A DNA stretch of 64,000 bases from an uncultured Eubacteriales bacterium (GTDB lineage: Bacteria > Bacillota > Clostridia > Christensenellales > Borkfalkiaceae): NCBI GenBank assembly GCA_959603585.1, contig CAUGYD010000006.1, forward strand, positions 46,288 to 110,287. The letters are read 5' to 3'. Positions 10,279-26,652 of this stretch are shown one piece after another. How positions within the stretch are numbered: position 1 is the first letter of the stretch; every line of letters starts with the position of its first letter. The notes beneath the pieces were generated by a model. The model was not told where the DNA came from. It worked only from the letters and a program-made list of their open reading frames with translations, and did no database searches. Position numbers and translations under genes: made by a program.

Positions 10279-11544
10279 CTATATGCCGCAAAAGACATTT
10301 TGTATCTTTCCGGATACACTTTCAAGGTATTCCGTCGTAGTGTCCGTATATATATTTTGCGTAACCGCCAACGATGCGTGCCCGAGCAGATATTGTTTGA
10401 GCTTCGGTTGTATGTTTCCTTCTTCCAATCTCGTCGCATAGGTATGCCGCAAAATATGGAGAGTAACATTTAATCCCGTTTCTTTCGCGATTCTTTCGGT
10501 TGCCTTACGGACTGCATCGTAAGAATACGGAAAGATAGCGTCGCCGCTCATACATTTGATTTCATCGCATATACTTCGGGGAACCGGTACGATGCGATAT
10601 CCCGCATCCGATTTCGGCGTTTGCTCGATCTTTTCTCCGTTTACGAACACTACATTTTTATTGACCGAAACAATACCTTTTTCAAAATCGAAATCGGAAC
10701 GTTTCAGCGCGAGCGCTTCTCCTATACGCAATCCCGTACTGAGTAAAAATCGATACAATAAAGAGTGTTTCGTTTGGGAGGCTGCCCTCAAAAAGATTTC
10801 TTGTTCTGCTCTCGTGAGTGCTTTTTTATGCGAAGCCTTATGCCTTTTGATTTCCACGGCATCGCAGGGGTTATTTTTGATTATCCCTTGTATTACCGCC
10901 TTTTTGAATAATTGAGACAAATTGATCTTGCACAGGTCTCTTATTCGTCCCGCCTTTATTCCGACCAACAACTTTTGAATATCGTTTGAGGTTATCTCGT
11001 CCAGCGCCTTATCTTGAAATGCTTTTTCCGCGTATTTTAACGACCTCTCCATCGATTGTAACGATGAGGGTTTTAGATTGGGCTTTTTATAGATCTCGAT
11101 CCATTCGGACATATAGGCAAGGAACATAGGGCTCGATTTTTTGCGCGGTTTTACCTTTTGAGGGGTGCGCTGTCTTCTGCTTCGGCTGTTTCTCAAAAAC
11201 TCTCTGATTTTGTTTGTAACATCTTCGTAATTCCTCCCGTAAAAGTATTTGCGTTGTCCGTCATCCTGAATGATATACCCTTGGAACCTTCCGTCCCGTC
11301 TCGGTTTACTTGTGATGGATACGCCTTTCGCTTCTATTAACATTTGACTCTCCTTTTCAGTAGTCAAAGCATTGCCGTTTTTATCTTCAATATTTTTAGC
11401 TTCCATTAATGACCTCAATATATCTTTCGTAAAACTTTCTGCCGCCAAACGCAGCACTGTGGCCGTGGCATCGTCTTTACTTTTACCGTTAACAGAAGCT
11501 GTATTTATAATTTTAAGTACATTTACTAGTTCGTCATGATTCAT
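10279..11544 (-). CDS. Tyrosine-type site-specific integrase (phage integrase family with arm-binding N-domain)
   Basis: The C-terminal catalytic region carries R...HxLRHTYATRL...Y (LHILRHTYATRLEEGN, NIYTDTT). Its 3' end lies 139 bp from the tRNA-Thr. Confidence 0.9.
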   Translation of the reverse strand: MNHDELVNVLKIINTASVNGKSKDDATATVLRLAAESFTKDILRSLMEAKNIEDKNGNALTTEKESQMLIEAKGVSITSKPRRDGRFQGYIIQDDGQRKYFYGRNYEDVTNKIREFLRNSRSRRQRTPQKVKPRKKSSPMFLAYMSEWIEIYKKPNLKPSSLQSMERSLKYAEKAFQDKALDEITSNDIQKLLVGIKAGRIRDLCKINLSQLFKKAVIQGIIKNNPCDAVEIKRHKASHKKALTRAEQEIFLRAASQTKHSLLYRFLLSTGLRIGEALALKRSDFDFEKGIVSVNKNVVFVNGEKIEQTPKSDAGYRIVPVPRSICDEIKCMSGDAIFPYSYDAVRKATERIAKETGLNVTLHILRHTYATRLEEGNIQPKLKQYLLGHASLAVTQNIYTDTTTEYLESVSGKIQNVFCGI

Positions 11545-11609
11545 TTTTGATAATTCTTGTCCTCCTTATAGTGAAAGCGCAAGGGGACATAATCCTTGCG
11601 CTTTTCGTT

Positions 11610-11846
11610 TTATTTTTTATTTTTTTGTTTTTTCGGGTCGTATTCCGACTTCAAAGCGCTATATCCTGCTTCGATCAATTTTACTTTCGTGAGGCCGTGC
11701 TCCGTTAAGAAAGCGTTTATTTCTTCATACAGTGCCCTCGGAATCATCGTTCCGAAATTTCCGCTCGTTGCTTTTCTCTTTTCTTTATTCCGTTCCTCGT
11801 ACCGTCTGCGGCTTTCCCGCCCGGGTGTGTTTTCTTTTCTCTCCAT
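11610..11846 (-). CDS. Small basic ribbon-helix-helix-like protein (putative excisionase/regulator of the integrase module)
   Basis: This 78-aa ORF has a basic N-terminal tail, then a beta-strand plus two helices (FGTMIPRALYEEINAFLTEHGLTKVKLIEAGYSAL) compatible with an RHH fold. It is adjacent to the integrase. Confidence 0.35.
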   Translation of the reverse strand: MERKENTPGRESRRRYEERNKEKRKATSGNFGTMIPRALYEEINAFLTEHGLTKVKLIEAGYSALKSEYDPKKQKNKK

Positions 11847-12044
11847 AATTACTCCGAAAATAATATTGTCGTATTAATACTATTATAGCACCTTGTAGCT
11901 ATCAAGTCAAGCATTTTTAGCAAAATTTTTTTCCGTCAGCCTTTTTCAAAGCTCCAACAGCTACTTATTTTTTCCTGTTCTTTACTTTTCTCGCGTTCCC
12001 TCTCTTCCTGCATCTCGTCCTCGATTTCTTTCAGTCGATTGGTG

Positions 12045-12094
12045 TACAGTCATATACAAGTGTCGTCAATAAAATGGTTTGGAGAAAGTTCTGA
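12045..12094 (+). repeat. Direct repeat copy 1 (50 bp, identical to the last 50 bp of the fnlC-like gene at 30054-30103)
   Basis: The sequence tacagtcatatacaagtgtcgtcaataaaatggtttggagaaagttctga is found exactly at 12045-12094 and at 30054-30103. Flanks differ on both sides. Confidence 0.9.
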
Positions 12095-12106
12095 AATAAT
12101 AAAGAA

Positions 12107-12150
12107 GAGCGTACTTAACTTCTTACGTCAAGTACGCTCTCTTATTTTAT
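12107..12150. terminator. Bidirectional intrinsic terminator
   Basis: A 10-bp perfect stem gagcgtactt / aagtacgctc (12107-12116 and 12130-12139) has T-rich runs on both sides. It lies immediately 3' of the minus-strand epimerase gene. Confidence 0.6.
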
Positions 12151-13232
12151 ACTTTATAAAATTCTTTGTACCACTCGGCAAATTTTCTTAAGCCCTTCCG
12201 CAAATTCGTTCTTGGCTTAAAACAAAAATCACGTTCTAAAGACGAAGTTTCTGCATAAGTGATAGGTACGTCGCCAGGTTGCATTGGTACAAGCTTTTTA
12301 TGCGATTCAAAATCGTAATCAGCAGGTAGAACTTTCGCATGAATAAGTTCTTGTTGTAAAATATCCACAAAATCCAACAAATTTTCGGGTTTATTATTCC
12401 CAATATTATAAATCGCATACGGAGGAACAGGTAAACCGTCTTCTCCATTTTTCTTTTCTGGAGCGCCTTGCATGACACGTTTAACACCTTCTACAATGTC
12501 GTCTATATAGGTAAAGTCGCGCTTGCAATTTCCGTAATTGAAAATTTGAATAGTTTCACCTTTCAATAACTTATTGGTAAAGTTGAAATATGCCATATCT
12601 GGACGCCCTGCGGGACCGTAGACGGTAAAGAAGCGTAAACCCGTGGAAGGAATATTATATAATTTACTGTATGCATGAGCCATTAATTCATTTGACTTTT
12701 TTGTGGCAGCATATAAAGAAATGGGATTATCGACTTTGTCATCGGTAGAATAAGGAACTTTTTTATTTGAACCGTAGACCGACGATGAAGATGCGTAAAC
12801 GAGATGTTTAATCCCAGAGGCTCCATTGACGTAAGAATAACGGCAAGCTTCTAAAATGTTATAAAAGCCAATTAAATTCGATTCAATGTACGCATCTGGA
12901 TTGCTTATAGAATAACGAACTCCCGCTTGTGCTGCAAGATTGACGACTATCTCAGGTTTGTACGTCTCAAAAATTTGTGTGATCAAGGTTTTATTTGCGA
13001 TATTTCCTTGGACAAAAATCCAAGAAGAATCCTTATGTTCAGAAGCAATTTTCTTAATCTCGTGTAATCTCCATTTTTTTAGGCAAACATCGTAATAATC
13101 GCTCATATTATCAATTCCTACGATATGAATAGAAGATTGCGAACGGAGAAGTTCTAATATAAGATTGGCACCGATAAAACCCGCTGCACCAGTGATAAAG
13201 ATAGTTCTATTTTGCAAAGTAATAGTTGTCAT
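12147..13232 (-). CDS. NAD-dependent epimerase, UDP-glucuronate 4-epimerase type (CapI/Cap1J-like)
   Basis: The Rossmann motif GAAGFIGANL is present, together with YASSSSVYG and the characteristic segment YGPAGRPDMAYFNFTNKLLKGETIQIFN. It is paired with ugd. Confidence 0.75.
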   Translation of the reverse strand: MTTITLQNRTIFITGAAGFIGANLILELLRSQSSIHIVGIDNMSDYYDVCLKKWRLHEIKKIASEHKDSSWIFVQGNIANKTLITQIFETYKPEIVVNLAAQAGVRYSISNPDAYIESNLIGFYNILEACRYSYVNGASGIKHLVYASSSSVYGSNKKVPYSTDDKVDNPISLYAATKKSNELMAHAYSKLYNIPSTGLRFFTVYGPAGRPDMAYFNFTNKLLKGETIQIFNYGNCKRDFTYIDDIVEGVKRVMQGAPEKKNGEDGLPVPPYAIYNIGNNKPENLLDFVDILQQELIHAKVLPADYDFESHKKLVPMQPGDVPITYAETSSLERDFCFKPRTNLRKGLRKFAEWYKEFYKV

Positions 13233-13241
13233 ATTTTTCCC

Positions 13242-14720
13242 TCAATCTCTTTGGAACAAGTCTCTTGTATAGACTTTTTCTTTAACATCGTCAAGGCAAG
13301 AATCAAAACGATTAGCAATAATACAGCGACTCATTTTCTTAAATTTTTTGAGATCGTTGACGATAAGGCTCCCAAAAAACGTAGTTCCGTTTTCCAAAGT
13401 CGGCTCGTAAATAATCACCGTAGCCCCTTTCGCTTTAATTCGTTTCATGACTCCTTGGATAGAGGATTGACGAAAGTTATCGGAATTACTCTTCATGGTC
13501 AGTCGGTAAACGCCGACAATGACCTCCTTTTCTTTATTTTCGTCAAAGATGCTATTCGCTTCATAAGCACCTGTAAGTTCTAGAATCCGATCAGCAATAA
13601 AATCCTTTCTCGTGTGATTACTTTCCACAATCGCTGTTATCATGTTCTGCGGTACGTCGTTGTAGTTGGCAAGAAGTTGTTTAGTATCCTTGGGTAAACA
13701 GTAACCGCCATAACCAAACGAGGGATTATTATAATGTGTCCCGATGCGTGGATCAAGGCATACGCCTGTAATGATATCTTGTGTATTTAATCCCTTAACC
13801 TCTGCATATGTATCTAGTTCATTAAAATAGGAAACTCGAAGCGCTAAATATGTATTGGCAAAAAGTTTAACAGCTTCGGCTTCAGTAAATCCCATCAATA
13901 ATATCTCTACATTCTTTTTGATAGAACCTTCTTGTAAAAGTTCAGCAAAAGTTTGAGCTGATTTTAATAGTTTTTCGTCTGATTTATCCGTGCCTACAAT
14001 AATACGTGAAGGATAAAGATTGTCATAAAGAGCCTTGCTTTCACGTAAAAATTCAGGACTGAAAATTATATTTTTCGTATTATATTTAGCTCGGATAGCT
14101 ACCGTATATCCGACAGGAATAGTCGATTTTATAACTATGATTGCGTTCGGATTAACTTTAAGAACAAGTTTAATTACTTCTTCTACTGCAGAAGTGTCAA
14201 AATAATTCTTCTTGCTATCATAATTAGTTGGCGTAGCGATAATTACGAAATCGGCATTTTTATAGGCATTTTCACCATCAAGTGTGGCTACAAGATTAAG
14301 GTTTTTATGAGAAAGATATTCTTCAATATAGTCATCTTGGATGGGGGATTTTTTTTGATTGATAAGTTCTACTTTTTTTGGAACAACATCAACTGCTGTG
14401 ACTTGATTATGTTGAGCAAGTAATATAGCTAGCGATAAACCGACATAACCTGTTCCTGCAACAGCAATGTTTACTGACGAATGAAAAGCTGTAAAGGGCA
14501 TGATAGACTCATCTCCAAACATAGCACTTGGCTCAAATCCAAGAACATCACCGAGTTTTTCAAGTTGTGGGATTAGAGGAATATAATTCCCTTGTTCTAA
14601 GCGACTAATAATTGCTCTATTGATGCCTGTAAGGATAGAAAGCTGTTGTTGAGATAAATGCTTTTCCTTTCTTAGGGAAATAACTTTTTGTGCTAGCATT
14701 TTTACATTTAGTTTTTTCAT
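13242..14720 (-). CDS. ugd: UDP-glucose 6-dehydrogenase with an in-frame N-terminal XRE-family HTH domain
   Basis: Residues about 85-492 align throughout with E. coli Ugd ([66 protein letters not shown]). Residues 1-66 form a complete HTH_XRE domain ([39 protein letters not shown]). No stop codon separates the two parts. Confidence 0.85.
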
Positions 14721-15307
14721 AACGCCTCTCTCTCTTTAAAAGATTGATACTTTAAGAAACAAATTGTGACGATTTGAAAGGTTTAATTTATAATATTATA
14801 ATATTTGTAATTATAAAAGTCAAGTGAAAAGAGGCTATTATATAAAAATATAGTGATAAAAAGCATCTCTATATGGTCAAGCATTTTTTTTGAGCAACGA
14901 CATCTGAATTTAGAAAAAGGGGATCCCAAAGTCGTATATAAATTTTTGTCGAATATTGAAATAAATACGTTAAATTGTTGCCTTATTTATAAGTTTATGC
15001 TATAATATACAAAATAGAAAAATATCTATCGTTGCGGCAGGGCATTAATATATTCGACTATCGTTTTTTGTATCCAAAAGAATTATTTGGTGAAAAAAAT
15101 TTTTAAGAAAATGATGCGTGAGACGAGACGATAACAAATTTTTAAGTTTAAAATATAAGATTGTGAATTTGTTTTGTCAATATAATAATGTTTTTATTGT
15201 AATATACAAGGTAACTTTTGAAACAATAAGATTCCGTATATGAAGTTTAGTTTGAGCATATGTCTATAAGGAATAATTTAGAATTAAGTTGGAATTTTTT
15301 AAGATAA

Positions 15308-16582
15308 ATGATTGATAAATCAAAGAGGTGCAATATCGTGTCAGAACGAAAAAGAAGGGTTTTATTTAGTCCTCCAGATATTTCAGAAGAGGAAATTAAA
15401 GAAGTTAGTGAGACGCTTCGTTCAGGGTGGATCACTACAGGTCCTAGAACAAAAAAACTTGAAAAAGAAATTGCCGCGTGGATAGGTGTCGGGCATACAG
15501 CCAAAGGTACGCCGCGATGTGTTTGTTTAAATAGTCAAACAGCTTGTGCGGAAATGGCTTTACGCATTATGGGGATCGGTCAGGGGGACGAAGTAATCGT
15601 TCCAGCTTATACTTATACCGCATCTGCTTCCGTTGTTTGTCACGTCGGGGCAAAATTGATTCTTGTCGACTCTCAGAAAAATTCTCTTGAAATGGACTAT
15701 GATAAAGTTGAAGCAGCGATTAATGAGAGAACTAAGGCAATTATACCTGTCGATATAGGAGGGATTCCTTGCGACTACGATAAAATTCTTAAAATTATAG
15801 AAAGAAAGAAAAAAATTTTTAAGCCCGTAAACAATATTCAAAAGGCACTTGGAAGAATCGCGATTATGGCGGATACCGCTCACGCGTTCGGTGCAAGACG
15901 TAAAGGCGTAATGGTTGGTAACATTGCCGATTTTTCATCGTTTAGTTTTCATGCTGTTAAAAATTTTACTACGGCAGAAGGTGGGGCTTTGACATGGAAA
16001 CATATTCAGGGAATTGAGGATGACGAAATATATCATCGACTTCAGCTTTTGAGTCTACATGGTCAATCAAAGGATGCTCTTGCTAAAACAAAATTAGGGG
16101 CGTGGGAATATGACATAATAGGTACTTGGTATAAGTGCAATATGACCGATATTGTTGCGGCAATCGGTTTGAAACAATTTGAGCGTTATCCTGGAATGTT
16201 GAAGAGGAGAAGATATATTATTGCAAAATATGATGCGGCTTTAAAACCGATCGGCGTTAACGTTTTACCACATTATACGAACGAATATGAATCTTCTGGA
16301 CATTTATATATTACAGAAATTCCAAAAATTACACACGAACAGCGTAATGAAATTATTATAAAAATGGCAGAACAGGGTATTGCTTGTAATGTTCATTATA
16401 AGCCCTTGCCTATGCATACGGCTTATAAAAATCTAGGATTTGATATTAAAGATTATCCCAATGCTTATAAGCACTATGAAAATGAAATAACACTACCACT
16501 CCATACGTGCCTGTCTGATGAAGATGTGGCGTATGTGATTAAAAAATATATGGAAATCGTAAAAGAATATGTTGATATGTAA
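15308..16582 (+). CDS. DegT/DnrJ/EryC1/StrS-family PLP-dependent sugar aminotransferase
   Basis: The overall pattern is that of the AHBA_syn/DegT fold family. It lies within the glycan locus, upstream of the initiating transferase. Confidence 0.8.
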   Translation: MIDKSKRCNIVSERKRRVLFSPPDISEEEIKEVSETLRSGWITTGPRTKKLEKEIAAWIGVGHTAKGTPRCVCLNSQTACAEMALRIMGIGQGDEVIVPAYTYTASASVVCHVGAKLILVDSQKNSLEMDYDKVEAAINERTKAIIPVDIGGIPCDYDKILKIIERKKKIFKPVNNIQKALGRIAIMADTAHAFGARRKGVMVGNIADFSSFSFHAVKNFTTAEGGALTWKHIQGIEDDEIYHRLQLLSLHGQSKDALAKTKLGAWEYDIIGTWYKCNMTDIVAAIGLKQFERYPGMLKRRRYIIAKYDAALKPIGVNVLPHYTNEYESSGHLYITEIPKITHEQRNEIIIKMAEQGIACNVHYKPLPMHTAYKNLGFDIKDYPNAYKHYENEITLPLHTCLSDEDVAYVIKKYMEIVKEYVDM

Positions 16583-17333
16583 ATGGAAAAAGCTTCCTGA
16601 AAATATGCAAACGGAAGAAATTCGTCCGTACTGGGAGAAACTTAAAAAAAGGAATTGGAATCTATTTTGGAAGAGAATTTTTGATATTATTGTTTCTCTT
16701 CTTATGCTTATTGTTTTGTCTCCGTTGTTTTTCTGTTTAGCACTAGCAATAAAAATTGATAGCAAAGGACCGATTTTTTACAGACAAGTAAGAATTACGC
16801 AATATGGAAAAGAATTTGAAATCCATAAATTTAGAAGCATGATGGTTAATGCAGACAAAGGTAGTTTGGTAACTGTTAAAGATGACATGAGGGTGACTAA
16901 GGTTGGAAAGTTTATCAGAAAATATAGACTTGACGAAATTTCACAACTCATCGATGTTTTTCAGGGGAATATGTCTTTGGTGGGAACCCGTCCCGAAGTG
17001 CCTAAATATGTTGAATCGTATAGTCCTGTGATGAGGGCTTCTCTTCTGCTTCCTGCTGGAATAACCTCCGAAGCGAGCATCCTATATAAAAATGAAGCAG
17101 AACTTCTTGATAAATCAGAAGAGGTAGATAAAGTTTATATTGAAGAGGTTCTTCCTGCTAAGATGTATTATAATCTGAAAGAAATCCCGAAAGAAGGAAT
17201 ATTTCATGATATTAAAATAATGTTTATGACTGTCTTTACTGTCTTTGGAAAAGAATACAAAGGGGATTACAAGAAAGAGGTAATTCAAAATTTTGAAAAA
17301 CAAGAAATAGGAAAGGAGTTTGTTGGTAAATGA
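16569..17333 (+). CDS. Undecaprenyl-phosphate sugar-1-phosphate transferase, small PglC/WbaP-C-terminal type (initiating glycosyltransferase)
   Basis: A single N-terminal reentrant helix is followed by the Bac_transf motifs (KGPIFYRQVRITQYGKEFEIHKFRSM, DEISQLIDVFQGNMSLVGTRPE). Confidence 0.85.
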   Translation: MLICKWKKLPENMQTEEIRPYWEKLKKRNWNLFWKRIFDIIVSLLMLIVLSPLFFCLALAIKIDSKGPIFYRQVRITQYGKEFEIHKFRSMMVNADKGSLVTVKDDMRVTKVGKFIRKYRLDEISQLIDVFQGNMSLVGTRPEVPKYVESYSPVMRASLLLPAGITSEASILYKNEAELLDKSEEVDKVYIEEVLPAKMYYNLKEIPKEGIFHDIKIMFMTVFTVFGKEYKGDYKKEVIQNFEKQEIGKEFVGK

Positions 17334-18331
17334 TGACAGTATCTTTGTGTGTTGTTGCATATAATGAAGAACAATTTCTTCCTAATCTTTTATCAGATAT
17401 TGAGAATCAAACTTATTTACATAATTTGACTGAAATTATTTTAGTCGATAGCAATTCTTCAGATAAAACTAAGGATATAATGAAAGAATTTTCTCAAAAG
17501 GCATCTTCTTTTTATAGTATTCAAGTGTTAGATAATCCTCAAAAAGTACAGGCTGCAGGTTGGAATGTTGCCATTAAACATGCTAAAAGTGATGTGATTA
17601 TTAGAATTGACGCTCATACGCACATTCCTGCTGATTTTACGGCAAAGAATATGAAATTACAAGAAAATGGTGAATATATAACTGGTGGTATTAGACCTTG
17701 CTTAATTGATAAGCCTACACCTTGGAAAGAGATGTTGCTTGAAGTAGAAAACTCAATGTTTGGAAGTAGTATAAGTAAAGGGCGCAAAAATGATAAAAAG
17801 TGTTATGTAGATTCTATGTTTCATGCAGCATACAGAAAAGAAGTCTTTGAAAAAGCAGGTGTTTTTAACCCGAAACTTTTGAGAACCGAAGATAATGAAA
17901 TGCACTATCGTATTCGAAAGGCAGGCTATAAATTATATTGTGATCCTGATATTGTTTCTTATCAATATGCACGTAGTAATTTAAAAAAGATGATAAAACA
18001 AAAATATGAAAATGGGTATTGGGTAGGGGTGACGCTCGGGGTTTGTCCTAGGTGTATATCGTTGTTTCATCTCATACCGTTAATCTTTGTCTTAGGTATT
18101 TTTTTTACAACAATATTAACACTTTTTTCAATTTGGCATTTAGCGGCATTAATGTGGGGGGCATATTTATTATTTGTAGGTGCGGGAATGATTTGTACAA
18201 TCTTGAATAAACGAGCTAATAGATGGACATTTCTTATGCCGATTGTTTTTCTTGTATTACATGTAAGTTATGGGATTGGAACTGCGGTTGGAATTTTTAA
18301 AATTCCAATTTTTAAGAAAAAATTGAATTAG
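17330..18331 (+). CDS. Family 2 glycosyltransferase with C-terminal membrane anchor
   Basis: The GT-A N-terminus (VSLCVVAYNEE, ILVDSNSSD, DAH) is followed by two C-terminal TM helices. Confidence 0.75.
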   Translation: MMTVSLCVVAYNEEQFLPNLLSDIENQTYLHNLTEIILVDSNSSDKTKDIMKEFSQKASSFYSIQVLDNPQKVQAAGWNVAIKHAKSDVIIRIDAHTHIPADFTAKNMKLQENGEYITGGIRPCLIDKPTPWKEMLLEVENSMFGSSISKGRKNDKKCYVDSMFHAAYRKEVFEKAGVFNPKLLRTEDNEMHYRIRKAGYKLYCDPDIVSYQYARSNLKKMIKQKYENGYWVGVTLGVCPRCISLFHLIPLIFVLGIFFTTILTLFSIWHLAALMWGAYLLFVGAGMICTILNKRANRWTFLMPIVFLVLHVSYGIGTAVGIFKIPIFKKKLN

Positions 18332-18343
18332 GAGAAAACAACT

Positions 18344-19420
18344 GTGGTAGGTATTATTTTTATTGGTGATTTATATGTTTGTCCATATTTACATAGATAT
18401 ACAACTATATGTGACATAAATCAAGTTGAATATGAAGTATTATTTTGGAATAGATGTGGGGAAAAATTGAATCTTCCTAAAAATTATTTGTATTTTGAAA
18501 AAACCTCAAAAGAAGAACAAAACTTTATAATTAAAAGTATAGATTTTTTTAAATATAGGAATTGGTTAAAAAGGTGCATAAAGCAAAGAAAATATGAAAA
18601 ACTGATAATACTATCTACATTAAGCGGTATAGTTCTCTTTGATTTAATATCAAAATATAAAAATAGATATATTTTTGATATCCGTGACTATAGTTATGAA
18701 CACTTAAAACTTTTTTACAAGATAGAACGAAAAATAATTAGAAATAGTTATTATACTGCTATTTCATCTCCAGGCTTTAAAAATTTTTTACCACAGAATG
18801 ACTATTTCATAATTCATAATATGCAAAGTTCCGACTTGGATCATTTGGGTCGATTTCATAAGAAACATTATGGTGAAGTTTTGAATATTGTCTGGAATGG
18901 GACCATGCGGTATTTCGAACACCAAAGAAAGATTATCAAAAAATTGGCAAACGATTCAAGATTTATAATGTATTATTATGGAGATGGACCACAACTTAAT
19001 AAATATAAACAATATATTGAAGAACATAATATAAAAAATGTGTTTTTTACAGGGAAATATAATAATTCCGAAAAATCAAAATTATTAAAAAATGCTGATA
19101 TATTGAATAACAGTTATTGGATAGAGGGTAAAGAAAAGGAAGTATTGTATGCATTATCTAATCGATATTATGATGGCCTAATATATCGTATTCCGCAACT
19201 CGTTGAGGCGAAAACGTATAAGGCTTCACTTTGCGAAATAAACGAAATTGGTATTGGTATTGCCCCCAATATAGAAAATTTTTCTGATAAACTTTACGAA
19301 TGGTATTTTAATATTAATCAGTCGAGATTTGAAGAAAACTGTCAAAAACTTTTGACGAAGGCTATTAAAGAAGACCGAGAAATGAGTGAGAAACTGACAG
19401 ATTTTTTAACCAAGGAGTAG
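18344..19420 (+). CDS. Putative GT-B fold glycosyltransferase (GT4-like C-terminal half)
   Basis: The C-terminal segment IVWNGTMRYFEHQRKII...IMYYYGDGPQLNKYKQYIEEHNIKNVFFTGKY follows the GT4 pattern. The canonical EX7E motif is weak. Confidence 0.4.
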   Translation: MVGIIFIGDLYVCPYLHRYTTICDINQVEYEVLFWNRCGEKLNLPKNYLYFEKTSKEEQNFIIKSIDFFKYRNWLKRCIKQRKYEKLIILSTLSGIVLFDLISKYKNRYIFDIRDYSYEHLKLFYKIERKIIRNSYYTAISSPGFKNFLPQNDYFIIHNMQSSDLDHLGRFHKKHYGEVLNIVWNGTMRYFEHQRKIIKKLANDSRFIMYYYGDGPQLNKYKQYIEEHNIKNVFFTGKYNNSEKSKLLKNADILNNSYWIEGKEKEVLYALSNRYYDGLIYRIPQLVEAKTYKASLCEINEIGIGIAPNIENFSDKLYEWYFNINQSRFEENCQKLLTKAIKEDREMSEKLTDFLTKE

Positions 19421-19718
19421 GTTTATGACTGTGAATAAAAATAAATTTATTAAAAAATGCTAGATATACATTATTCAGCGTTATAGTCTAAAACGTATAG
19501 AAAATGAGAAAACAGGCAGTTTTACACTTTAACTACTTTTAAAGCGTTACAATTTTTGTTTTTTGAATAAATGAAAGTGAACCGTTTAACAATACCTTGC
19601 TTTGGGTTTTGTAAAATTGGTAAAAATATGAAAATTAGAGCGAAGATAATAGTTGTTGTTAGGGGTGTTCCTAATTTTACTACGGTAAGGGCTATAGGAT
19701 AATATTAAGAGGACATAT

Positions 19719-20903
19719 ATGAGTAAAATTTTATTTGTTGGCTGGTATCCTAATCCGGAAGATAAATATAAAAATATTTTTTTTCGTAATTTGATATTTG
19801 CTATGGCAGATATGGGGATAGAATGTACGGTAATATCGCCAGTTTCTTATATGCATTATGGTAAACGGATTAAAAATATTCCAAGGTTTGTTGACGAAAA
19901 AACTCTTGGAGGAAATAGTGTGCTTGTGTATTATCCAAGAATTTTATCGGCGTCTTCAAAACAAATAGGAAAGTATAATACAGAACATTTGTCGGAGCGA
20001 TTTTTTGAAAATGGTGCATTGAGGATAGCAAAATTTTTATTAAAACATAATCAAAAATTTAATGCTGTTTATGGGCACTTTTTTCTTTATGGAGGGTTGG
20101 CGGCGATAAGGATAGGTAAAGTATTAAAAATTCCTTCTTTTGTTGCTTTTGGAGAATGTGATTATGAAACTCAGATTCAACAAACTTATGGTGACCTAAA
20201 AAAGAAGGATATTGAAGGGTTGAGTGGTGTAATTGCTGTTTCTACTAAAAACGCAAAACGGCTCTTAGACTTAGGAATTTTTTCTGATATACCTATTATA
20301 GTAGCACCTAATTCAGTAGATCATAACATATTTCATCCGTTAAATCGTTTGGAGTGTAGGCATAGATTAGGATTATCTACTGACAAGTTTATTGTTGGGT
20401 TCGTTGGTGGTTTTATTGAAAGAAAAGGGGATAAACGACTCCTTGCGGCGGTAAACGAATTGGATGACGTATATTTAGTATATGCTGGTCGTGGTGACGT
20501 TCCCCCGTCAGGTGAGAAGGTTTTATTTTGTAAGGCTATGAAACATGACGATATACCAATCTTACTTTGTGCGGCAGATGTATTTTGTTTACCGACACTA
20601 AGTGAAGGCTCCTGTAATGCTGTTGTGGAAGCAATGGCTTGCGGGATTCCTGTAATATCGTCGAATCTTTCATTCAATGATGATGTGTTAACAGAAGAAA
20701 ATGCAATTAGAATTGATCCTTCTTCAGTGGATGAAATACGTGAGGCAATTTACGAAATAAAAGTAAATAATGTTTTACGCGATAGACTGGGAAAAGCTGC
20801 GTTAAAAACATCTGAAGGATTAAATATAAAAAATAGAGCAAAAAAAATACTTAATTTTATGTTTCGTGGAAATATGGAGGGAAATAATGATTCAGAATCA
20901 TAA
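19719..20903 (+). CDS. Family 4 (GT-B, retaining) glycosyltransferase
   Basis: The C-terminal Glycos_transf_1 signature carries an EX7E-type motif (LSEGSCNAVVEAMACGIPVISSN). Confidence 0.85.
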   Translation: MSKILFVGWYPNPEDKYKNIFFRNLIFAMADMGIECTVISPVSYMHYGKRIKNIPRFVDEKTLGGNSVLVYYPRILSASSKQIGKYNTEHLSERFFENGALRIAKFLLKHNQKFNAVYGHFFLYGGLAAIRIGKVLKIPSFVAFGECDYETQIQQTYGDLKKKDIEGLSGVIAVSTKNAKRLLDLGIFSDIPIIVAPNSVDHNIFHPLNRLECRHRLGLSTDKFIVGFVGGFIERKGDKRLLAAVNELDDVYLVYAGRGDVPPSGEKVLFCKAMKHDDIPILLCAADVFCLPTLSEGSCNAVVEAMACGIPVISSNLSFNDDVLTEENAIRIDPSSVDEIREAIYEIKVNNVLRDRLGKAALKTSEGLNIKNRAKKILNFMFRGNMEGNNDSES

Positions 20904-21464
20904 AGATTATAAACGATACCTTAATTCTGATGCTCATGCATTGTTCTCAAAAAAGCCTTCTATTATTGAGAAACTAAAGAATCCTATTTGGAAATATCAA
21001 AGATTATTAAGAAAATGCGAATATTTTCGAAATACTAATCGATTTGTTCCACTATATTTAAATATTCTATATCTATATAACAAATTTAGACTTTCAAAAT
21101 GGGGTATAAGTTAGGATTTAGCATATCAGAAAATGTTTTTGATGAGGGATTGAGTATAGCACATTACGGAACAATTATCGTTAATCCCTCTGTAAAAGTA
21201 GGAAAGAACTGTAGAATTCATGCGGGAGTAAATATAGGTGCAAGTGTTGATGGGAAAAGTCCTATGATAGGGGATAACGTATATATTGGGCCAGGAGCAA
21301 AAATATTCGGGGGAATAATTTTAGGTAACAATATAGCGGTAGGGGCTAATGCTGTTGTTAATAAAAGTTTCCCACTCGGAAATTGTACTATAGGAGGGAT
21401 TCCTGCTCATATAATTAGCGAAAAGGACTCTAGATTGCTTGCTGTTACATATTATTGGAAATGA
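20866..21464 (+). pseudogene. Hexapeptide-repeat sugar O-acetyltransferase (WcaB/CysE-like), disrupted by a 1-nt frameshift
   Basis: The N-terminal helical part (82 aa, frame 1, ending KWGIS*) and the left-handed beta-helix part (121 aa, frame 0, from MGYKLGFSISENVF...) overlap at 21099-21114. Together they make about 200 aa of one acetyltransferase. The slip is probably in the A4 run at 21095-21098 or the G4 run at 21101-21104. Confidence 0.55.
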
Positions 21465-21478
21465 GGTGACTTTAAAAA

Positions 21479-22696
21479 ATGGAATCGACGAACATGGTTG
21501 CAATAGTAAAAGAACACTCTTTAACGAGTAATATAGATAAGTGTAGGTTGCTGCTAATCGGGATATTGATTTTTTATATATTTTGTTTTCAGTATGTTTT
21601 TTATCCCATAAATGGTTTTCTTTCGCTTTTAGGTGTGATGTTGGCTTTTCTAGAGGTTTTGCGATTGTCACCCAAATATTATAAAAGGATTGGATATATA
21701 TGCACTTTCATAATTTTTGCTGCGCTATTTGGGTCGCTAACGGCATATGATATCAATGCTCATATAAGATTAATTGTTAATATGATGCAGTATTGTCTTC
21801 CGATGATAGCAATATGCGGATACGTGGGAAACAATGGGAAAAGATTATCCAATATTCTTCAAATAATGAGCTTTACAACTATTATACTAGCAATTTCATT
21901 AATATTTAATGGTGTAAAATTTACGGATTATGGGGCAGTGACTGTAGGAGATTTAAATACAAATGTCCTCTCTTGCTTTTTAATGATTGGTTTATTATCT
22001 CAGTTATTTTTACTTTGCGAATGTAAAAAGTCGATAATGAAAATAATTTTGTTTTGTGGAATTTTTATCGAATTAGTAGCGCAAATGCGAGCATCTTCAA
22101 GAAGAGGACTAGTAATTTTTGTTTTTTTATTGGGGGTTTATTTTTTATTGGCATATTTTATACGTTACAAAAAGAATTCTATAATGAAACTTTTTTTGGT
22201 TGTTTCAGTTATAGTTATATTTTTTATTTTTATGGCTAATTTCTATTCTTTGGCAGATAAGTATGTAATTTTGCGCCGATTATTTATGGGGGAGTTTAAT
22301 TCCGGTGATGCTTTAAGAGAGAAATATCAATCAGCTGCTTTCGAATTATTCAAAGAAGCGCCTATTTTTGGACAGGGGTTTGGATGCGTTTCGGCACGAG
22401 TTGGTATGTATAGTCATTCTATGTATTATGAAACATTGGCAAGCACGGGGGTTTTGGGAGGATTTTTATTATTTGGTTCGATTTTATCAAATATGTTCAA
22501 ATTTTTAAAAAGGGCAAAAAGTAGTAAACTCGAAGAATTAAAAATGAAATGCTATATGGGAGCGTGTGGATTTTTTGTAATATTATTATCAGGTATTGCG
22601 GTTGTCAGCATTTTTGATGCCTATTTTTATATTATGCTCGGTATATTAGGGGCGTTAGGCAATGTCGCATTCCAAAATCAAAAGGGGAATTTATGA
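21479..22696 (+). CDS. Wzy-type O-antigen/oligosaccharide polymerase (O-antigen ligase domain family membrane protein)
   Basis: The ORF predicts about 10-12 TM helices. A large loop contains the RRGLVIF segment. It lies in a Wzx-containing locus. Confidence 0.5.
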   Translation: MESTNMVAIVKEHSLTSNIDKCRLLLIGILIFYIFCFQYVFYPINGFLSLLGVMLAFLEVLRLSPKYYKRIGYICTFIIFAALFGSLTAYDINAHIRLIVNMMQYCLPMIAICGYVGNNGKRLSNILQIMSFTTIILAISLIFNGVKFTDYGAVTVGDLNTNVLSCFLMIGLLSQLFLLCECKKSIMKIILFCGIFIELVAQMRASSRRGLVIFVFLLGVYFLLAYFIRYKKNSIMKLFLVVSVIVIFFIFMANFYSLADKYVILRRLFMGEFNSGDALREKYQSAAFELFKEAPIFGQGFGCVSARVGMYSHSMYYETLASTGVLGGFLLFGSILSNMFKFLKRAKSSKLEELKMKCYMGACGFFVILLSGIAVVSIFDAYFYIMLGILGALGNVAFQNQKGNL

Positions 22697-23799
22697 AAGT
22701 ACTCTATTATTTTCTTGATTTACCTACAAATATGTTTCAATGGCAAAAATATCATATTATCGATGAACTTGCAACGCATAATATTTTTATTGACATTTTT
22801 TCTCCGTTAAAATATGCAAATATAGGACAAGCTAACGAAATGCTCCTAGAAGCTATTAATGGGTATGATATGTTTATGACCTGCCTAAATGAAACATATC
22901 TATATTTAGATACGCTACAAGAAATAAAGAAAAGAGGTATTCCTACGTTACTATTTTGTCCGGATAATTTGACCGCGCCGTTTAATCATAAAAAAATAGC
23001 ACCGTTTTTTGATTTAGTATGGCTGACTTCAATTGAAACGGAGTATTTGTTCAAACGTTGGGGAGCGAAAACGATTTTTCTTCCATATGCAGCTAACCCA
23101 AATTTGTTAAAGCCAATATCTTCGGAAAATGAGATTTTACGTGTCGGATTTGTCGGTACTCCTCACGGTAGTAGAATTGATAGAATAAATAAGTTACTCG
23201 ATGGCGGAATACCCATAACTGTACATACGTCAACAGAAAATTTTGATAATAAGCTTATAAAGGCTCCAATATTGGAGTATCTCAAAAAGTCTTCTTTATG
23301 GTTTCGTTATCCGCTTGGTCGACGACTTTTAATTGCTGCTATTCGTGATAAATTGGGCCATAGAGAGCTTATGGATAAAAAAAACTGTCTTGAAATAAAA
23401 GAACCAGTTTCTTTGGAGAAACTGTCGGAAATCAACGGAAGTTATGCATTAGTTTTGAGTTTTACAGAAGCGGATAGTACAGGGATTTTAAAACATCCTG
23501 TGCCAATTGTTAATTTACGTAATTTCGAAATTCCTATGTCGGGGGGATTACAATTTACTATGTATAGTAAAGAGATTGCAGAATATTTTGAGAATGATAA
23601 GGAGATTATTTTGGCTCGCTCTATGGAAGAATATATTGATAAAGCTAAATTTTATTTACAAGCGGAACAGACTTCTCTTAGAAAAAGAATAAGATTTGCA
23701 GCTAGAAAAAGAGCCCAAACACAACACACTTGGTATAATCGCTTTTCATGTATATTTCAGTCTCTAGGGCTGTATCAAATATTCGGAATTCAAAGGTAA
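22693..23799 (+). CDS. CgeB-family glycosyltransferase-like protein
   Basis: The C-terminal motifs (RVGFVGTPHGSRIDRINKLL, RKRAQTQHTWYNRF) resemble the CgeB/Glyco_trans_1_2 family. Assignment is weak. Confidence 0.4.
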   Translation: MKVLYYFLDLPTNMFQWQKYHIIDELATHNIFIDIFSPLKYANIGQANEMLLEAINGYDMFMTCLNETYLYLDTLQEIKKRGIPTLLFCPDNLTAPFNHKKIAPFFDLVWLTSIETEYLFKRWGAKTIFLPYAANPNLLKPISSENEILRVGFVGTPHGSRIDRINKLLDGGIPITVHTSTENFDNKLIKAPILEYLKKSSLWFRYPLGRRLLIAAIRDKLGHRELMDKKNCLEIKEPVSLEKLSEINGSYALVLSFTEADSTGILKHPVPIVNLRNFEIPMSGGLQFTMYSKEIAEYFENDKEIILARSMEEYIDKAKFYLQAEQTSLRKRIRFAARKRAQTQHTWYNRFSCIFQSLGLYQIFGIQR

Positions 23800-24073
23800 A
23801 CAGCTTTATTTTGTATTAAATTGGTGATATGCAACGAAATAATACTTTAAATAAGATATAAATTTAGTCTTTTTATTTTTTTGTAAACTATTCAACTTAA
23901 TTAATGTAAAATTTTAACCATTGTTTCAAGATAATATATTTTTTTGATAAGCACTAATTTTTTTATTTATTATAATTATATTTTGTAAAAATTTATTTTT
24001 CGAACATATTTTAAAATTTTTATAAAGAATAATTACTAAATAATGAAAAAGAATACTTTGTTAGAGGAATTGG

Positions 24074-25516
24074 ATGGGCAAAAAGAATTTGTTGCAAGGC
24101 ATAAGTTGGAGCCTTGCAGAAAAGTTATTACCTCAATTGGTAAGTTTAATTATTTCGGTTATTTTGGCTCGTTTGTTAGGACCAACAGAATATCGTGCAG
24201 TTGCAGTGGTTTTAATCTTCATAAATATCTGTGATGTTTTGGTTACAACAGGGTTTGGAATGGCGTTAATCCAAAAAAATGATGCAGATAAATTGGATTA
24301 TTCTACCATAAGTATTTTTAGTATTTCATTATCTATAGTTGTTGCGATAATTTTGTCGTCTATTTCCCCAACTATAGAAGGCTTTTTTGAAATACCTCAT
24401 TTGTCGCATTATCTTTCTGCGATGTCAATTCGAATTCCTCTCGCTGTTTTGAACTCAATTCAAAGAGCGTATTTACAAAAAAGTATGCAATTCAATAGAA
24501 TTTTTGTTGCGACATTGATAGGTACGCTTATATCAGGTATAATTGGTATAGTAATGGCACAAATAGGTTTTGGCACATGGGCTTTAATTGCACAATATTT
24601 ATCAAATTCAATTATTTCAACAATGATATTTTTATTTATAGCTAGATACCCGTTTAGCTTTCAATTTTCATGGCGCCGATTTGTTCCTATGTTTCGGTTT
24701 AGCTGGAAATTAACTTTTTCGGCTTTGTTTGCAAAGTTATATGACGAGTGTAGATCTGTAGTTATCGATAAAAAATATTCAGATAACTCTATTTCATATT
24801 ATAATAAAGGAATTCAAATACCTAATGTTGTATTGACGACTGTAAACGCTTCAATTACGACTGTTATGTTTCCTTTAATGGCAGAGATTCAAGATGAAAA
24901 AGAAAAATTAAAAAACACTTTAAGAGCTTCAATTAAACTTAGTACTTATGTGATTATGCCGATGATGATGGGGCTTATGATTGTGTCAAAGCCATTGGTA
25001 ATTCTACTTTATACGGAAACATGGGTTTCTACTATCCCATATATGCAAATTTTTGCTTTGTCGTATATTTGTACTCCAATTATAGAACTAAATCAGCGTG
25101 CGATTCAAGCGATTGGGAAAAGTGGTATTGTTATGAGGATTGAAATAATTAATAAATTGTTTGGTCTATTGACTATGTTGATTGTAATTTTATATTGTAA
25201 TTCGCCTATTTATATTGCAGGAAGTTTTGGGATATATATGTTGTTTTCATTAATTTCAAGTATGCTTGTTTATGGACGAACTATTGGATATTCTATGTTG
25301 CAACAATTAAATGATATTAAAAGTTCCTTTTTTATTAGTATTTTGATGTGTTGTACAATTTGGCCATTACATTATATAATTAATAATATGGCTCTTTTAC
25401 TTATATGCCAAATAATAGTTGGGATTTTTGTGTATATATTATTATCTAGTATTTTTAAAATACAGGAATTTAAGATACTTTATGAGCTTCTAATCAAAAT
25501 AATTAAGAAACAATAG
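24074..25516 (+). CDS. Wzx-type oligosaccharide flippase (MOP/polysaccharide biosynthesis protein family)
   Basis: The 480-aa ORF predicts about 12-14 TM helices. Its N-terminus (LLQGISWSLAEKLLPQLVSLIISVILARLLGPTEYRAVAV) is typical of RfbX/Wzx. Confidence 0.8.
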   Translation: MGKKNLLQGISWSLAEKLLPQLVSLIISVILARLLGPTEYRAVAVVLIFINICDVLVTTGFGMALIQKNDADKLDYSTISIFSISLSIVVAIILSSISPTIEGFFEIPHLSHYLSAMSIRIPLAVLNSIQRAYLQKSMQFNRIFVATLIGTLISGIIGIVMAQIGFGTWALIAQYLSNSIISTMIFLFIARYPFSFQFSWRRFVPMFRFSWKLTFSALFAKLYDECRSVVIDKKYSDNSISYYNKGIQIPNVVLTTVNASITTVMFPLMAEIQDEKEKLKNTLRASIKLSTYVIMPMMMGLMIVSKPLVILLYTETWVSTIPYMQIFALSYICTPIIELNQRAIQAIGKSGIVMRIEIINKLFGLLTMLIVILYCNSPIYIAGSFGIYMLFSLISSMLVYGRTIGYSMLQQLNDIKSSFFISILMCCTIWPLHYIINNMALLLICQIIVGIFVYILLSSIFKIQEFKILYELLIKIIKKQ

Positions 25517-25557
25517 AAAAGAATTAGATTCATCAAAAAAAGGAGAAAAAAGGGAAA

Positions 25558-26652
25558 ATGAAAACGATAATGCTTGTATTTGGAACGAGACCTGAGGCTA
25601 TTAAAATGTGTCCACTCGTAAATGAATTGAAAACTCGTAAAACTGTCCGCACTGTTGTTTGTGTAACAGGACAGCATCGTCAAATGCTTAACCAGGTGTT
25701 ACAAGTCTTTAATGTCGTTCCTAATTATGATTTATCCATCATGAAGGATAAGCAGACACTATTCGACATTACAACGAACATTCTAGCGAAAATTAAAGCA
25801 GTTTTGGAAGAAGTGAAGCCCGACGTAGTATTGGTCCATGGGGATACGTCGACAACTTTTGTCACGGCTCTTGCCTGTTATTACCTGCAGATTCCCGTTG
25901 GACACGTAGAGGCAGGACTGCGTACTTATAACATTTACAGTCCATACCCAGAAGAATTCAATCGGCAGGCGGTTGGAATTATCGCAAAATATAATTTTGC
26001 ACCCACAAGGCTTTCTGAACAAAATCTTCTACGGGAAGGGAAAGATCCGCAATCGATCTATGTTACGGGCAATACCGCGATCGACGCATTGAAAACGACA
26101 GTGCGGACTGATTATACCCATCCGGAATTAGAATGGGCAAAGGACAGTCGATTGATTATGATTACGGCACATCGTCGTGAAAATCTTGGAAAGCCGATGC
26201 ACAACATGTTTCGTGCGATTCGGCGTGTAATGGATGAGCATCCTGACATAAAGGCGCTTTATCCGATTCACATGAACCCAATCGTACGTCAGGCGGCTGA
26301 TGAAGAGTTGGGCGGCTGCGCCCAGATCCATATCATTGATCCGCTTGAGGTACTGGATTTTCATAATTTCCTTGCTCGTAGTTATCTGATTTTAACGGAC
26401 AGCGGTGGAATACAGGAAGAAGCACCGTCGCTTGGAAAGCCAGTTTTAGTTATGCGCGATACGACAGAACGCCCAGAGGGAATTAAAGCAGGAACGCTGA
26501 AACTGGTTGGAACAGATGAACAGACGATTTACGACAATTTTAAATTGCTTTTGGAAAATTCGGAAGTTTATCATAAAATGGCGCATGCGAGCAATCCATA
26601 CGGCGATGGTTTTGCCTGTAAACGAATTGCGGATATTTTGGAGGAGAAATGA
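25558..26652 (+). CDS. wecB: UDP-N-acetylglucosamine 2-epimerase (non-hydrolysing)
   Basis: The N-terminus MKTIMLVFGTRPEAIKMCPLV is present, together with HVEAGLRT and DSGGIQEEAPSLGKPVLVMRDTTERPEG. Confidence 0.9.
   Translation: MKTIMLVFGTRPEAIKMCPLVNELKTRKTVRTVVCVTGQHRQMLNQVLQVFNVVPNYDLSIMKDKQTLFDITTNILAKIKAVLEEVKPDVVLVHGDTSTTFVTALACYYLQIPVGHVEAGLRTYNIYSPYPEEFNRQAVGIIAKYNFAPTRLSEQNLLREGKDPQSIYVTGNTAIDALKTTVRTDYTHPELEWAKDSRLIMITAHRRENLGKPMHNMFRAIRRVMDEHPDIKALYPIHMNPIVRQAADEELGGCAQIHIIDPLEVLDFHNFLARSYLILTDSGGIQEEAPSLGKPVLVMRDTTERPEGIKAGTLKLVGTDEQTIYDNFKLLLENSEVYHKMAHASNPYGDGFACKRIADILEEK

Follow-up and report, generated by a model that had tools for sequence, protein, structure and literature searches.

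The 64-kb stretch of DNA analysed here (the window) encodes on its minus strand a protein in which an XRE/Cro-C1 helix-turn-helix (HTH) domain is joined, in one polypeptide, to a UDP-glucose 6-dehydrogenase (Ugd). The fusion is real, complete and conserved. We consider it probable that HTH-Ugd is a bifunctional trigger enzyme that binds operators in its own promoter region and, most likely, represses the HTH-ugd-epimerase operon. Auto-regulation by the fused HTH is strongly supported by sequence comparison, because the candidate operator occurs only upstream of fused genes and co-varies with helix 3, the recognition helix of the HTH.

The HTH-ugd coding sequence (13242..14720, minus strand; 492 codons plus stop, assigned from the open reading frame list and from Pfam and NCBIfam domains) has no internal stop codon. 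It reads through, as the initial annotation had claimed, from a Pfam HTH_3 domain into a full-length Ugd that matches the NCBIfam profile PRK15057 end to end. The protein can be divided into three parts, all encoded on the minus strand: the HTH domain (aa 1-66; 14523..14720), delimited by HTH_3, a family profile and an AlphaFold2 (AF2) model; a flexible linker (aa 67-83; 14472..14522), marked by low identity and low pLDDT and containing Met74; and the Ugd part (aa 84-492; 13242..14471), delimited by the PRK15057 match, with the GTGYVG motif at aa 89-94 and the GGYCLPKD motif that contains C341. The linker, first put at about 18 residues, is 17 residues long. At the sequence level HTH-Ugd has one feature of a trigger enzyme, an enzyme domain and a DNA-binding domain in the same chain.

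The Ugd part matches the three Pfam domains of the family, each above its cut-off: UDPG_MGDP_dh_N (PF03721; aa 84-250, 115.3 bits), the central domain (PF00984; aa 280-369, 94.5 bits) and the C domain (PF03720; aa 403-480, 44.1 bits). Its score of 311.5 against TIGR03026 (cut-off 189.8) places it among the nucleotide sugar dehydrogenases. PRK15057 (Ugd) aligns with aa 84-492 over profile positions 2-388 of 388; the score of 565.2 bits falls below the equivalog cut-off of 757 bits, so that by this profile the window protein is a relative of Ugd and no certified equivalog. The alignment with Klebsiella pneumoniae Ugd (3phl) spans aa 83-492 of the window protein, and identity to the K. pneumoniae and Streptococcus pyogenes UGDHs, both biochemically studied, is 58-60%. 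The Rossmann GTGYVG motif and the GGYCLPKD motif with C341 are the same in K. pneumoniae Ugd and are invariant in 50 fused proteins, as is a 21-residue motif around the catalytic Cys. Since the Rossmann and catalytic-Cys motifs are invariant, the Ugd part is almost certainly active as an enzyme. The predicted reaction is the oxidation of UDP-glucose to UDP-glucuronate with 2 NAD+, a prediction backed by the adjoining epimerase gene. Among the structures in the PDB comparison, all solved UGDHs start at query residue 79-85 and none has the N-terminal domain.

The N-terminal domain is recognised by Pfam HTH_3 (PF01381) at aa 15-64 (29.3 bits; gathering cut-off 23). Its family profile matches SinR, P22 C2, C.BclI/C.AhdI and CylR2 with E-values of 1e-7 to 1e-10, and there is a weak NCBIfam match to PuuR over aa 10-71. 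The 20-residue helix 2/3 motif quoted in the initial annotation corresponds to aa 24-43. A single-sequence AlphaFold model was uninformative (pLDDT 37), and a model based on an 85-sequence alignment was used instead. In this model aa 1-70 have a pLDDT of 84-96 and form the five helices of the XRE fold (residues 6-19, 24-31, 35-42, 50-60 and 64-67), the third being the predicted recognition helix (about aa 35-42, RAIISRLE; within 14523..14720, minus strand). The pLDDT drops below 50 at linker aa 72-76; the Rossmann domain that follows is modelled confidently and the central domain poorly.

The same architecture is found in databases well beyond the window. Each of the best 120 database matches (77-100% identity; 491-510 aa, nearly all 491-492) carries PF01381 together with the Ugd domains; their sources are Clostridium perfringens, Anaerostipes, Lachnospiraceae and Eubacteriales, and the only label given to them is "nucleotide sugar dehydrogenase". 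A profile search revealed a second large clade in Anaerobutyricum hallii, with single sequences present on 800-950 contigs. Scanning one genome per GTDB species with a query alignment (A3) that included the start of the Rossmann domain gave at least 51 loci with the N-terminal domain. An intact fused ORF of 490-537 aa is present in 45 of the 51 listed (at least 45 species-level genomes), and hosts among the loci listed include Clostridium, Dorea, Blautia, Oribacterium, Lactonifactor, Ruminococcus, Anaerococcus, Solobacterium and Erysipelotrichaceae. A few host MAGs are labelled Fusobacterium, Slackia, Coriobacteriaceae or Bacteroidaceae, and mis-binning is possible for these. A representative search with aa 1-105 and the A3 profile search returned mostly N-terminal fragments, and the family is diverse; frameshifted or truncated copies occur elsewhere (P0132, L012, L026).

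The protein of the window (P0001) is found, identical and with the same neighbours, on 58 contigs of independent assemblies. The fusion is therefore not an artefact, given this recurrence and the intact fusions in 45 of the 51 listed loci, and a sequencing error or lost stop at the junction, a concern raised with the initial annotation, is ruled out by the same observations. Averaged over all pairs of the 50 full-length members, the HTH is 51% identical, Ugd 76% and the linker 18%; linker length ranges from 15 to 55 aa. Judged by these sequence comparisons, the HTH and Ugd parts are both under selection. Invariant HTH residues in the 18-sequence alignment A3 include R17, K18, R35, E42, P48, Q52, L53 and L60, and Q24 joins the invariant or near-invariant HTH residues in the 50 full-length proteins.

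We searched up to 350 nt upstream of 46 fused genes for all 5- and 6-mer inverted repeats with spacers of 0-14 nt. Of the 46 upstream regions, 13 contain TGTTA-N7-TAACA, compared with 0.07 expected from dinucleotide shuffles, in which the most frequent inverted repeat of any kind reached 5. Relaxing the motif to TGTTR-N7-YAACA yields 31 exact sites, spread over 23 loci, and the resulting operator consensus is ATGTTAY-N5-RTAACAT, 17 bp in length. We then scanned 6 kb to either side of each locus, plus the 64-kb window, with position weight matrices (PWMs); the matrices were trained on the same upstream set, a circularity that does not touch the shuffle test, the controls or the leave-out test. 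The 15.5 kb of upstream DNA contain 48 sites scoring at least 13, whereas the other 436 kb of these loci contain 1. When the window and its closest relative are left out of the matrix, a site scoring at least 12 is present in 42 of 50 fused loci; the remaining 8 have none at this threshold. Among the upstream regions of non-fused ugd genes, 0 of 28 controls have a site scoring at least 12. Sites in A. hallii are asymmetric only, with none in the proximal position. Strong candidate sites in a C. perfringens locus (L085) are TGTTTTTTTAAATAACA and TGTTATTTTAAACGCCA.

The upstream regions are otherwise unrelated (blastn finds any match in only 5 of 1225 pairs) and information content drops to background directly outside the 17 bp, so that the motif stands as an island of conservation tied to the fused gene. 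Two sites scoring at least 11 are present in 33 of 50 loci, and the usual pair brackets a σ70-like promoter. In 23 of these 33 loci the proximal site is centred 19-44 nt before the ATG. Where a σ70-like promoter is predicted, many family loci have its -35 element about 95-113 nt before the ATG; with the predicted transcription start as reference, the proximal operator is at +25 to +45 and the distal operator at about -60 to -92. The distance between the two operators is either 32-73 nt or 94-164 nt and shows no helical phasing (Rayleigh p ~0.46), and phased DNA looping is therefore not supported.

The identity of one residue in helix 3 tracks the sequence of the half-site. This residue follows the invariant I-N-R and is A36 in the window protein. 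Counted as raw loci, uncorrected for shared ancestry, Ala pairs with TGTTAT half-sites (T at position 4 in 20 of 21 loci and AT at positions 5-6 in 17 of 21), Gly with TGTCAT (C at position 4 in 5 of 5) and Ser with TGTTGC (GC at positions 5-6 in 9 of 14 loci; the Ala figure is 1 of 21). This co-variation, seen in aligned sequences, matches the prediction of direct readout of the operator by the fused HTH.

The HTH-ugd gene of the window is separated from a divergent DegT-type aminotransferase gene, which starts at 15308 on the plus strand, by 587 bp of 24.7% GC (14721-15307); this agrees with the head-to-head arrangement with a plus-strand glycan operon across an AT-rich region of 590 bp described initially. 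A predicted σ70-type promoter, TTGACT-17-TATAAT (14795..14823, minus strand), has 11 of 12 consensus positions, and a Shine-Dalgarno-like element, AGAGAGAGAGG, can be read from the sequence at 14725..14735 (minus strand). The predicted proximal operator O1 (14745..14761, minus strand; TGTTTCTTAAAGTATCA on the gene strand) lies between the predicted promoter and the ribosome-binding site, with its centre 33 nt upstream of the ATG and at about +35 from the predicted transcription start. O1 is the top score (13.4) of 63,978 window positions with the leave-out matrix, rising to 14.2 with a refined matrix, and no other site in the 64-kb window scores at least 12.

A weak distal operator, O2, is predicted at 14806..14822 (minus strand; TGACTTTTATAATTACA on the gene strand). 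It overlaps the -35 hexamer and the spacer, beginning at the second base of the hexamer, and its score of 7.2 is by itself not significant. In L088, the closest relative whose upstream sequence differs (80% identity), a site, TGACATTTATAAGAACA, scores 14.3 in the same register as O2, over that locus's own TTGACA-17-TATAAT promoter. Both window operators fall short of the family consensus, O1 by one mismatch per half-site. Inverted repeats taken from the window alone are uninformative in DNA of 25% GC. One further AT-rich palindrome, over the -10 element (14784-14813), was considered as a candidate and rejected; it is not conserved in relatives.

Downstream, an SDR epimerase gene (12147..13232, minus strand; 361 aa, Pfam Epimerase) starts 9 nt past the ugd stop and is predicted to belong to the same operon. 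The best PDB relatives of the epimerase are 5u4q_A from K. pneumoniae (1.7e-103) and 6zl6 (4e-38). The latter is deposited only as 'Epimerase domain-containing protein', and we take it to be the Bacillus cereus UDP-glucuronate 4-epimerase. On these matches the SDR epimerase is probably a UDP-glucuronate 4-epimerase. An intrinsic-terminator-like hairpin with a 15-pair stem and a T-rich tail (12105..12141, minus strand) ends the two-gene operon. Across the family, a member of the same epimerase family lies directly downstream in 14 of the 29 loci with a co-directional downstream gene. Fused genes come first in a transcription unit of their own; the upstream gap has a median of 284 nt, and the upstream neighbour is divergent in 28 and co-directional in 14 of 42 loci. 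Non-fused ugd genes lie within operons, with a median upstream gap of 50 nt and a co-directional upstream gene in 20 of 25 cases.

The mechanism that we favour combines these elements. The C-terminal 409 residues would act as a UDP-glucose 6-dehydrogenase, supplying UDP-glucuronate to the epimerase and to the neighbouring glycan locus, while the N-terminal XRE HTH, on its flexible linker, would bind the 17-bp palindromes in its own promoter region. One operator would lie at about +25 to +45 from the transcription start, just 5' of the ribosome-binding site, and the second upstream of the promoter or over the -35 element. Binding to these operators would repress transcription of the HTH-ugd-epimerase operon and so exert negative feedback on the amount of enzyme. 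We infer repression as the sign of regulation from operator position, because one operator lies downstream of the start and the other, in the sub-clade of the window, over the -35 element. Bacterial UGDHs of this type are dimers; the Ugd core could therefore hold two HTH domains on one palindrome, and the two would be paired through the Ugd dimer. By analogy with BirA, PutA, NadR and RbkR, our guess is that DNA binding might be modulated by UDP-glucose, UDP-glucuronate or NAD(H). HTH-Ugd would then also be a sensor, in which UDP-glucose, UDP-glucuronate or NAD(H) in the active site switches operator binding through a changed presentation of the two tethered HTH domains; we put this forward tentatively, as a possibility that we rather doubt.

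It had been suggested at the outset that the fused HTH could auto-regulate its gene or coordinate both arms of the divergent region. The operator specific to fused genes and its co-variation with helix 3 strongly support the first part; the second is not supported, the sites being near ugd only. HTH-Ugd could in principle regulate the divergent glycan-assembly operon, or both arms, and so couple precursor supply to polymer assembly, and two observations favour this: the gene stands head-to-head with a DegT/Bac_transf/glycosyltransferase operon across the 587 bp, and the upstream gene is divergent in two thirds of the family loci (28 of 42). Both window sites, however, lie close to the ugd ATG (25-102 nt) and far from the plus-strand gene (about 490-560 nt), with no further site scoring at least 12 in the 64 kb and a single site in the 436 kb outside the immediate upstream regions of the family. 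The upstream neighbour is moreover inconsistent in identity and orientation (DegT, LytR, VanZ, RES, IS66), and we regard control of the glycan operon as unlikely. It is also quite improbable that the palindromes serve another, unlinked regulator, the fused HTH being vestigial or having a role other than DNA binding. Low-GC intergenic DNA does often contain AT-rich palindromes, but this motif is confined to fused genes (none of the 28 non-fused controls has it) and co-varies with a recognition-helix residue; the HTH, unlike the drifting linker, is conserved (51% identity, with invariant residues in helix 3), and the domain resembles operator-binding XRE repressors.

Two further explanations concern what is translated and what is transcribed. 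The long ORF might be an annotation or translation artefact, in which a start at Met74 gives an ordinary Ugd and the upstream part is untranslated or the remnant of a decaying regulator. A GGAG lies 11 nt before the ATG at 14500-14498, and the frameshifted or truncated copies (P0132, L012, L026) could be read in the same way. Such a reading is very unlikely, given that the N-terminal MKKL(S), with its own strong Shine-Dalgarno sequence, is conserved in about 50 species, that no stop interrupts the domains in 45 of the 51 listed loci, that the identical 492-aa protein is called on 58 contigs and that Met74 is present only in the window protein. The earlier proposal of a stand-alone Ugd made from this internal Met is not supported as a conserved feature, for the last of these reasons and for the character of the linker around it (18% identity, 15-55 aa), though this organism itself might use that start. 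Equally, the proximal palindrome would be transcribed and lies just 5' of the ribosome-binding site, as a 5'-UTR hairpin or riboswitch-like structure controlling translation would. Folding energy of the 5'-UTR is no better than that of shuffled sequences (z = -0.36), Rfam gives no match, the position of the second copy, over the -35 element or upstream of the promoter, would leave it untranscribed, and the palindrome has arms of just 5-7 nt around a central 7 nt that are A/T-rich and not loop-like. We rejected the RNA explanation on the folding and Rfam results and consider it extremely improbable.

A literature search, in which subscription journals were thinly covered, found no paper that describes a fusion of HTH and Ugd. 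In public annotation the architecture can be seen, as precomputed Pfam domains and as fragments named "helix-turn-helix domain-containing protein, partial". The trigger-enzyme concept is established; the domain combination, pathway, operator and recognition code are apparently undescribed. Uronic-acid sugars build capsules and exopolysaccharides, polymers that shape how gut commensals and pathogens meet their host. If auto-regulation by HTH-Ugd holds, thousands of proteins labelled "nucleotide sugar dehydrogenase" double as transcription factors, with an operator already defined and a readable code (Ala, Gly or Ser in helix 3 against TGTTAT, TGTCAT or TGTTGC), and the trigger-enzyme concept extends from vitamin and amino-acid metabolism to cell-surface glycan precursors. 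Were HTH-Ugd a sensor as well, the nucleotide-sugar pool would be wired directly to transcription of the uronic-acid precursor operon. It would then be the first trigger enzyme in surface-polysaccharide precursor metabolism, common to many gut Firmicutes, among them a pathogen (C. perfringens) and an abundant commensal (A. hallii). C. perfringens is genetically tractable and would allow an immediate test of the hypothesis, and HTH-Ugd might become a compact UDP-sugar-responsive switch for synthetic biology.

HTH-Ugd can be compared with four groups of known proteins. Stand-alone Ugd proteins (K. pneumoniae 3phl/3plr; S. pyogenes HasB, 1dli) share the three domains, the GxGxxG and catalytic Cys motifs and the 58-60% identity noted above but lack the 83-residue N-terminal HTH and linker; non-fused ugd genes, unlike the fused ones, are usually inside operons and have no upstream palindrome. 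Relative to K. pneumoniae Ugd, the window protein also has an insertion of about 15 residues (about aa 382-396). PuuR-type regulators, which combine HTH_3 with a cupin, have the same order of an N-terminal XRE HTH followed by a small-molecule-binding domain, but their C-terminal sensor is non-catalytic whereas HTH-Ugd keeps every catalytic motif. XRE repressors and controllers (the SinR N-domain, P22 C2, 434 Cro/cI, C.AhdI/C.BclI and CylR2) have the same five-helix domain. Their operators, like the candidate 17-bp sites of HTH-Ugd, are palindromes (about 14-18 bp), and helix 3 reads the outer bases. Controller proteins and phage repressors typically auto-regulate by means of paired operators at their own promoter. 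These proteins dimerise alone or through a small C-terminal domain; the partner of the HTH in HTH-Ugd is a 409-residue enzyme.

A parallel in design is with trigger enzymes that have a fused DNA-binding domain, namely BirA (a biotin ligase and repressor), NadR, PutA and the archaeal RbkR (PMC5397151, citing Commichau and Stulke 2008). Like HTH-Ugd, these join an active enzyme and an N-terminal DNA-binding domain in one polypeptide, and their palindromic operators lie at genes of their own pathway, often at their own gene. HTH-Ugd differs in having an XRE/Cro-C1 HTH, with no winged helix or ribbon-helix-helix, and in its enzyme, a nucleotide-sugar dehydrogenase whose pathway is the supply of surface-polysaccharide precursors. 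RbkR was first inferred from genome comparison and operator motifs (PMC5397151), as HTH-Ugd is here.

The genes encoding UDP-glucose 6-dehydrogenase (Ugd) with and without the N-terminal XRE-type helix-turn-helix (HTH) domain differ in their setting. Genes without the HTH (loci L056–L084) are located within operons, with a co-directional upstream gene in 20 of 25 cases and a median gap of 50 nt, whereas the fused genes (loci L005–L055) are preceded by long gaps (median 284 nt), with a divergent neighbour in 28 of 42 cases.

In the window, the fused gene and its epimerase partner belong to a glycan locus (~12–26 kb) with a GC content of 29–37%, compared with 40–52% in the flanks. The locus is adjoined by a tyrosine integrase gene (10279–11544, minus strand) and a conserved 78-aa ORF (11610–11846, minus strand), for which no family match was found. 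In L002 this HTH-ugd/epimerase pair recurs with a different insert behind it, and beyond that come the same 78-aa ORF and integrase. In the window, the segment from 10279 to 26000 resembles an island gained by horizontal transfer. In one relative (locus L089) the ugd-epimerase pair adjoins a defence island, not a glycan locus; the DNA preceding the fused gene there (L089 1–4619) carries CBASS-like genes (an SMODS/DncV-like nucleotidyltransferase and a ThiF-like gene) and a RES-domain gene.

The gene directly 3' of the fused gene also varies among relatives. In four loci (L014, L044, L046 and L048) it encodes a second Ugd paralogue of ~400 aa that lacks the HTH and begins with MKITVAGVGYVGLS. 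Because this paralogue adjoins the HTH-Ugd gene, the question arises whether enzymatic and regulatory roles are split between the two copies. In L023, L030 and L047 a ~390-aa gene takes the place of the epimerase gene; judged by sequence motifs only, its product appears GHMP-kinase-like, and a role in uronic-acid salvage is speculation. Copies of the fused gene that are truncated or carry a frameshift were seen in P0132 (from a metagenome), L012 6001–6516 ([Clostridium] polysaccharolyticum DSM 1801; 171 aa, annotated 'Helix-turn-helix') and L026 1080–2027 (a Slackia MAG); they are pseudogenes or result from errors in assembly.

Upstream of the fused gene in the window, an imperfect AT-rich palindrome (TAATTTATAATATTATAATATTTGTAATTA, 14784–14813) overlaps the predicted −10 element. 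Since it does not fit the family operator (the 17-bp palindrome TGTTR-N7-YAACA) and was not found in relatives, it probably arose by chance in DNA of 25% GC.

The version of the fused gene from Anaerobutyricum hallii (L091) is very abundant. Its predicted sites (L091 4793–4861) are all asymmetric, comprising TTCTATTTTAAATAACA and, over the −35 element, TTTCATTTTAATTGACA; with asymmetric sites only and the proximal site, near the ATG, absent, the A. hallii operator layout differs from that of most of the family.
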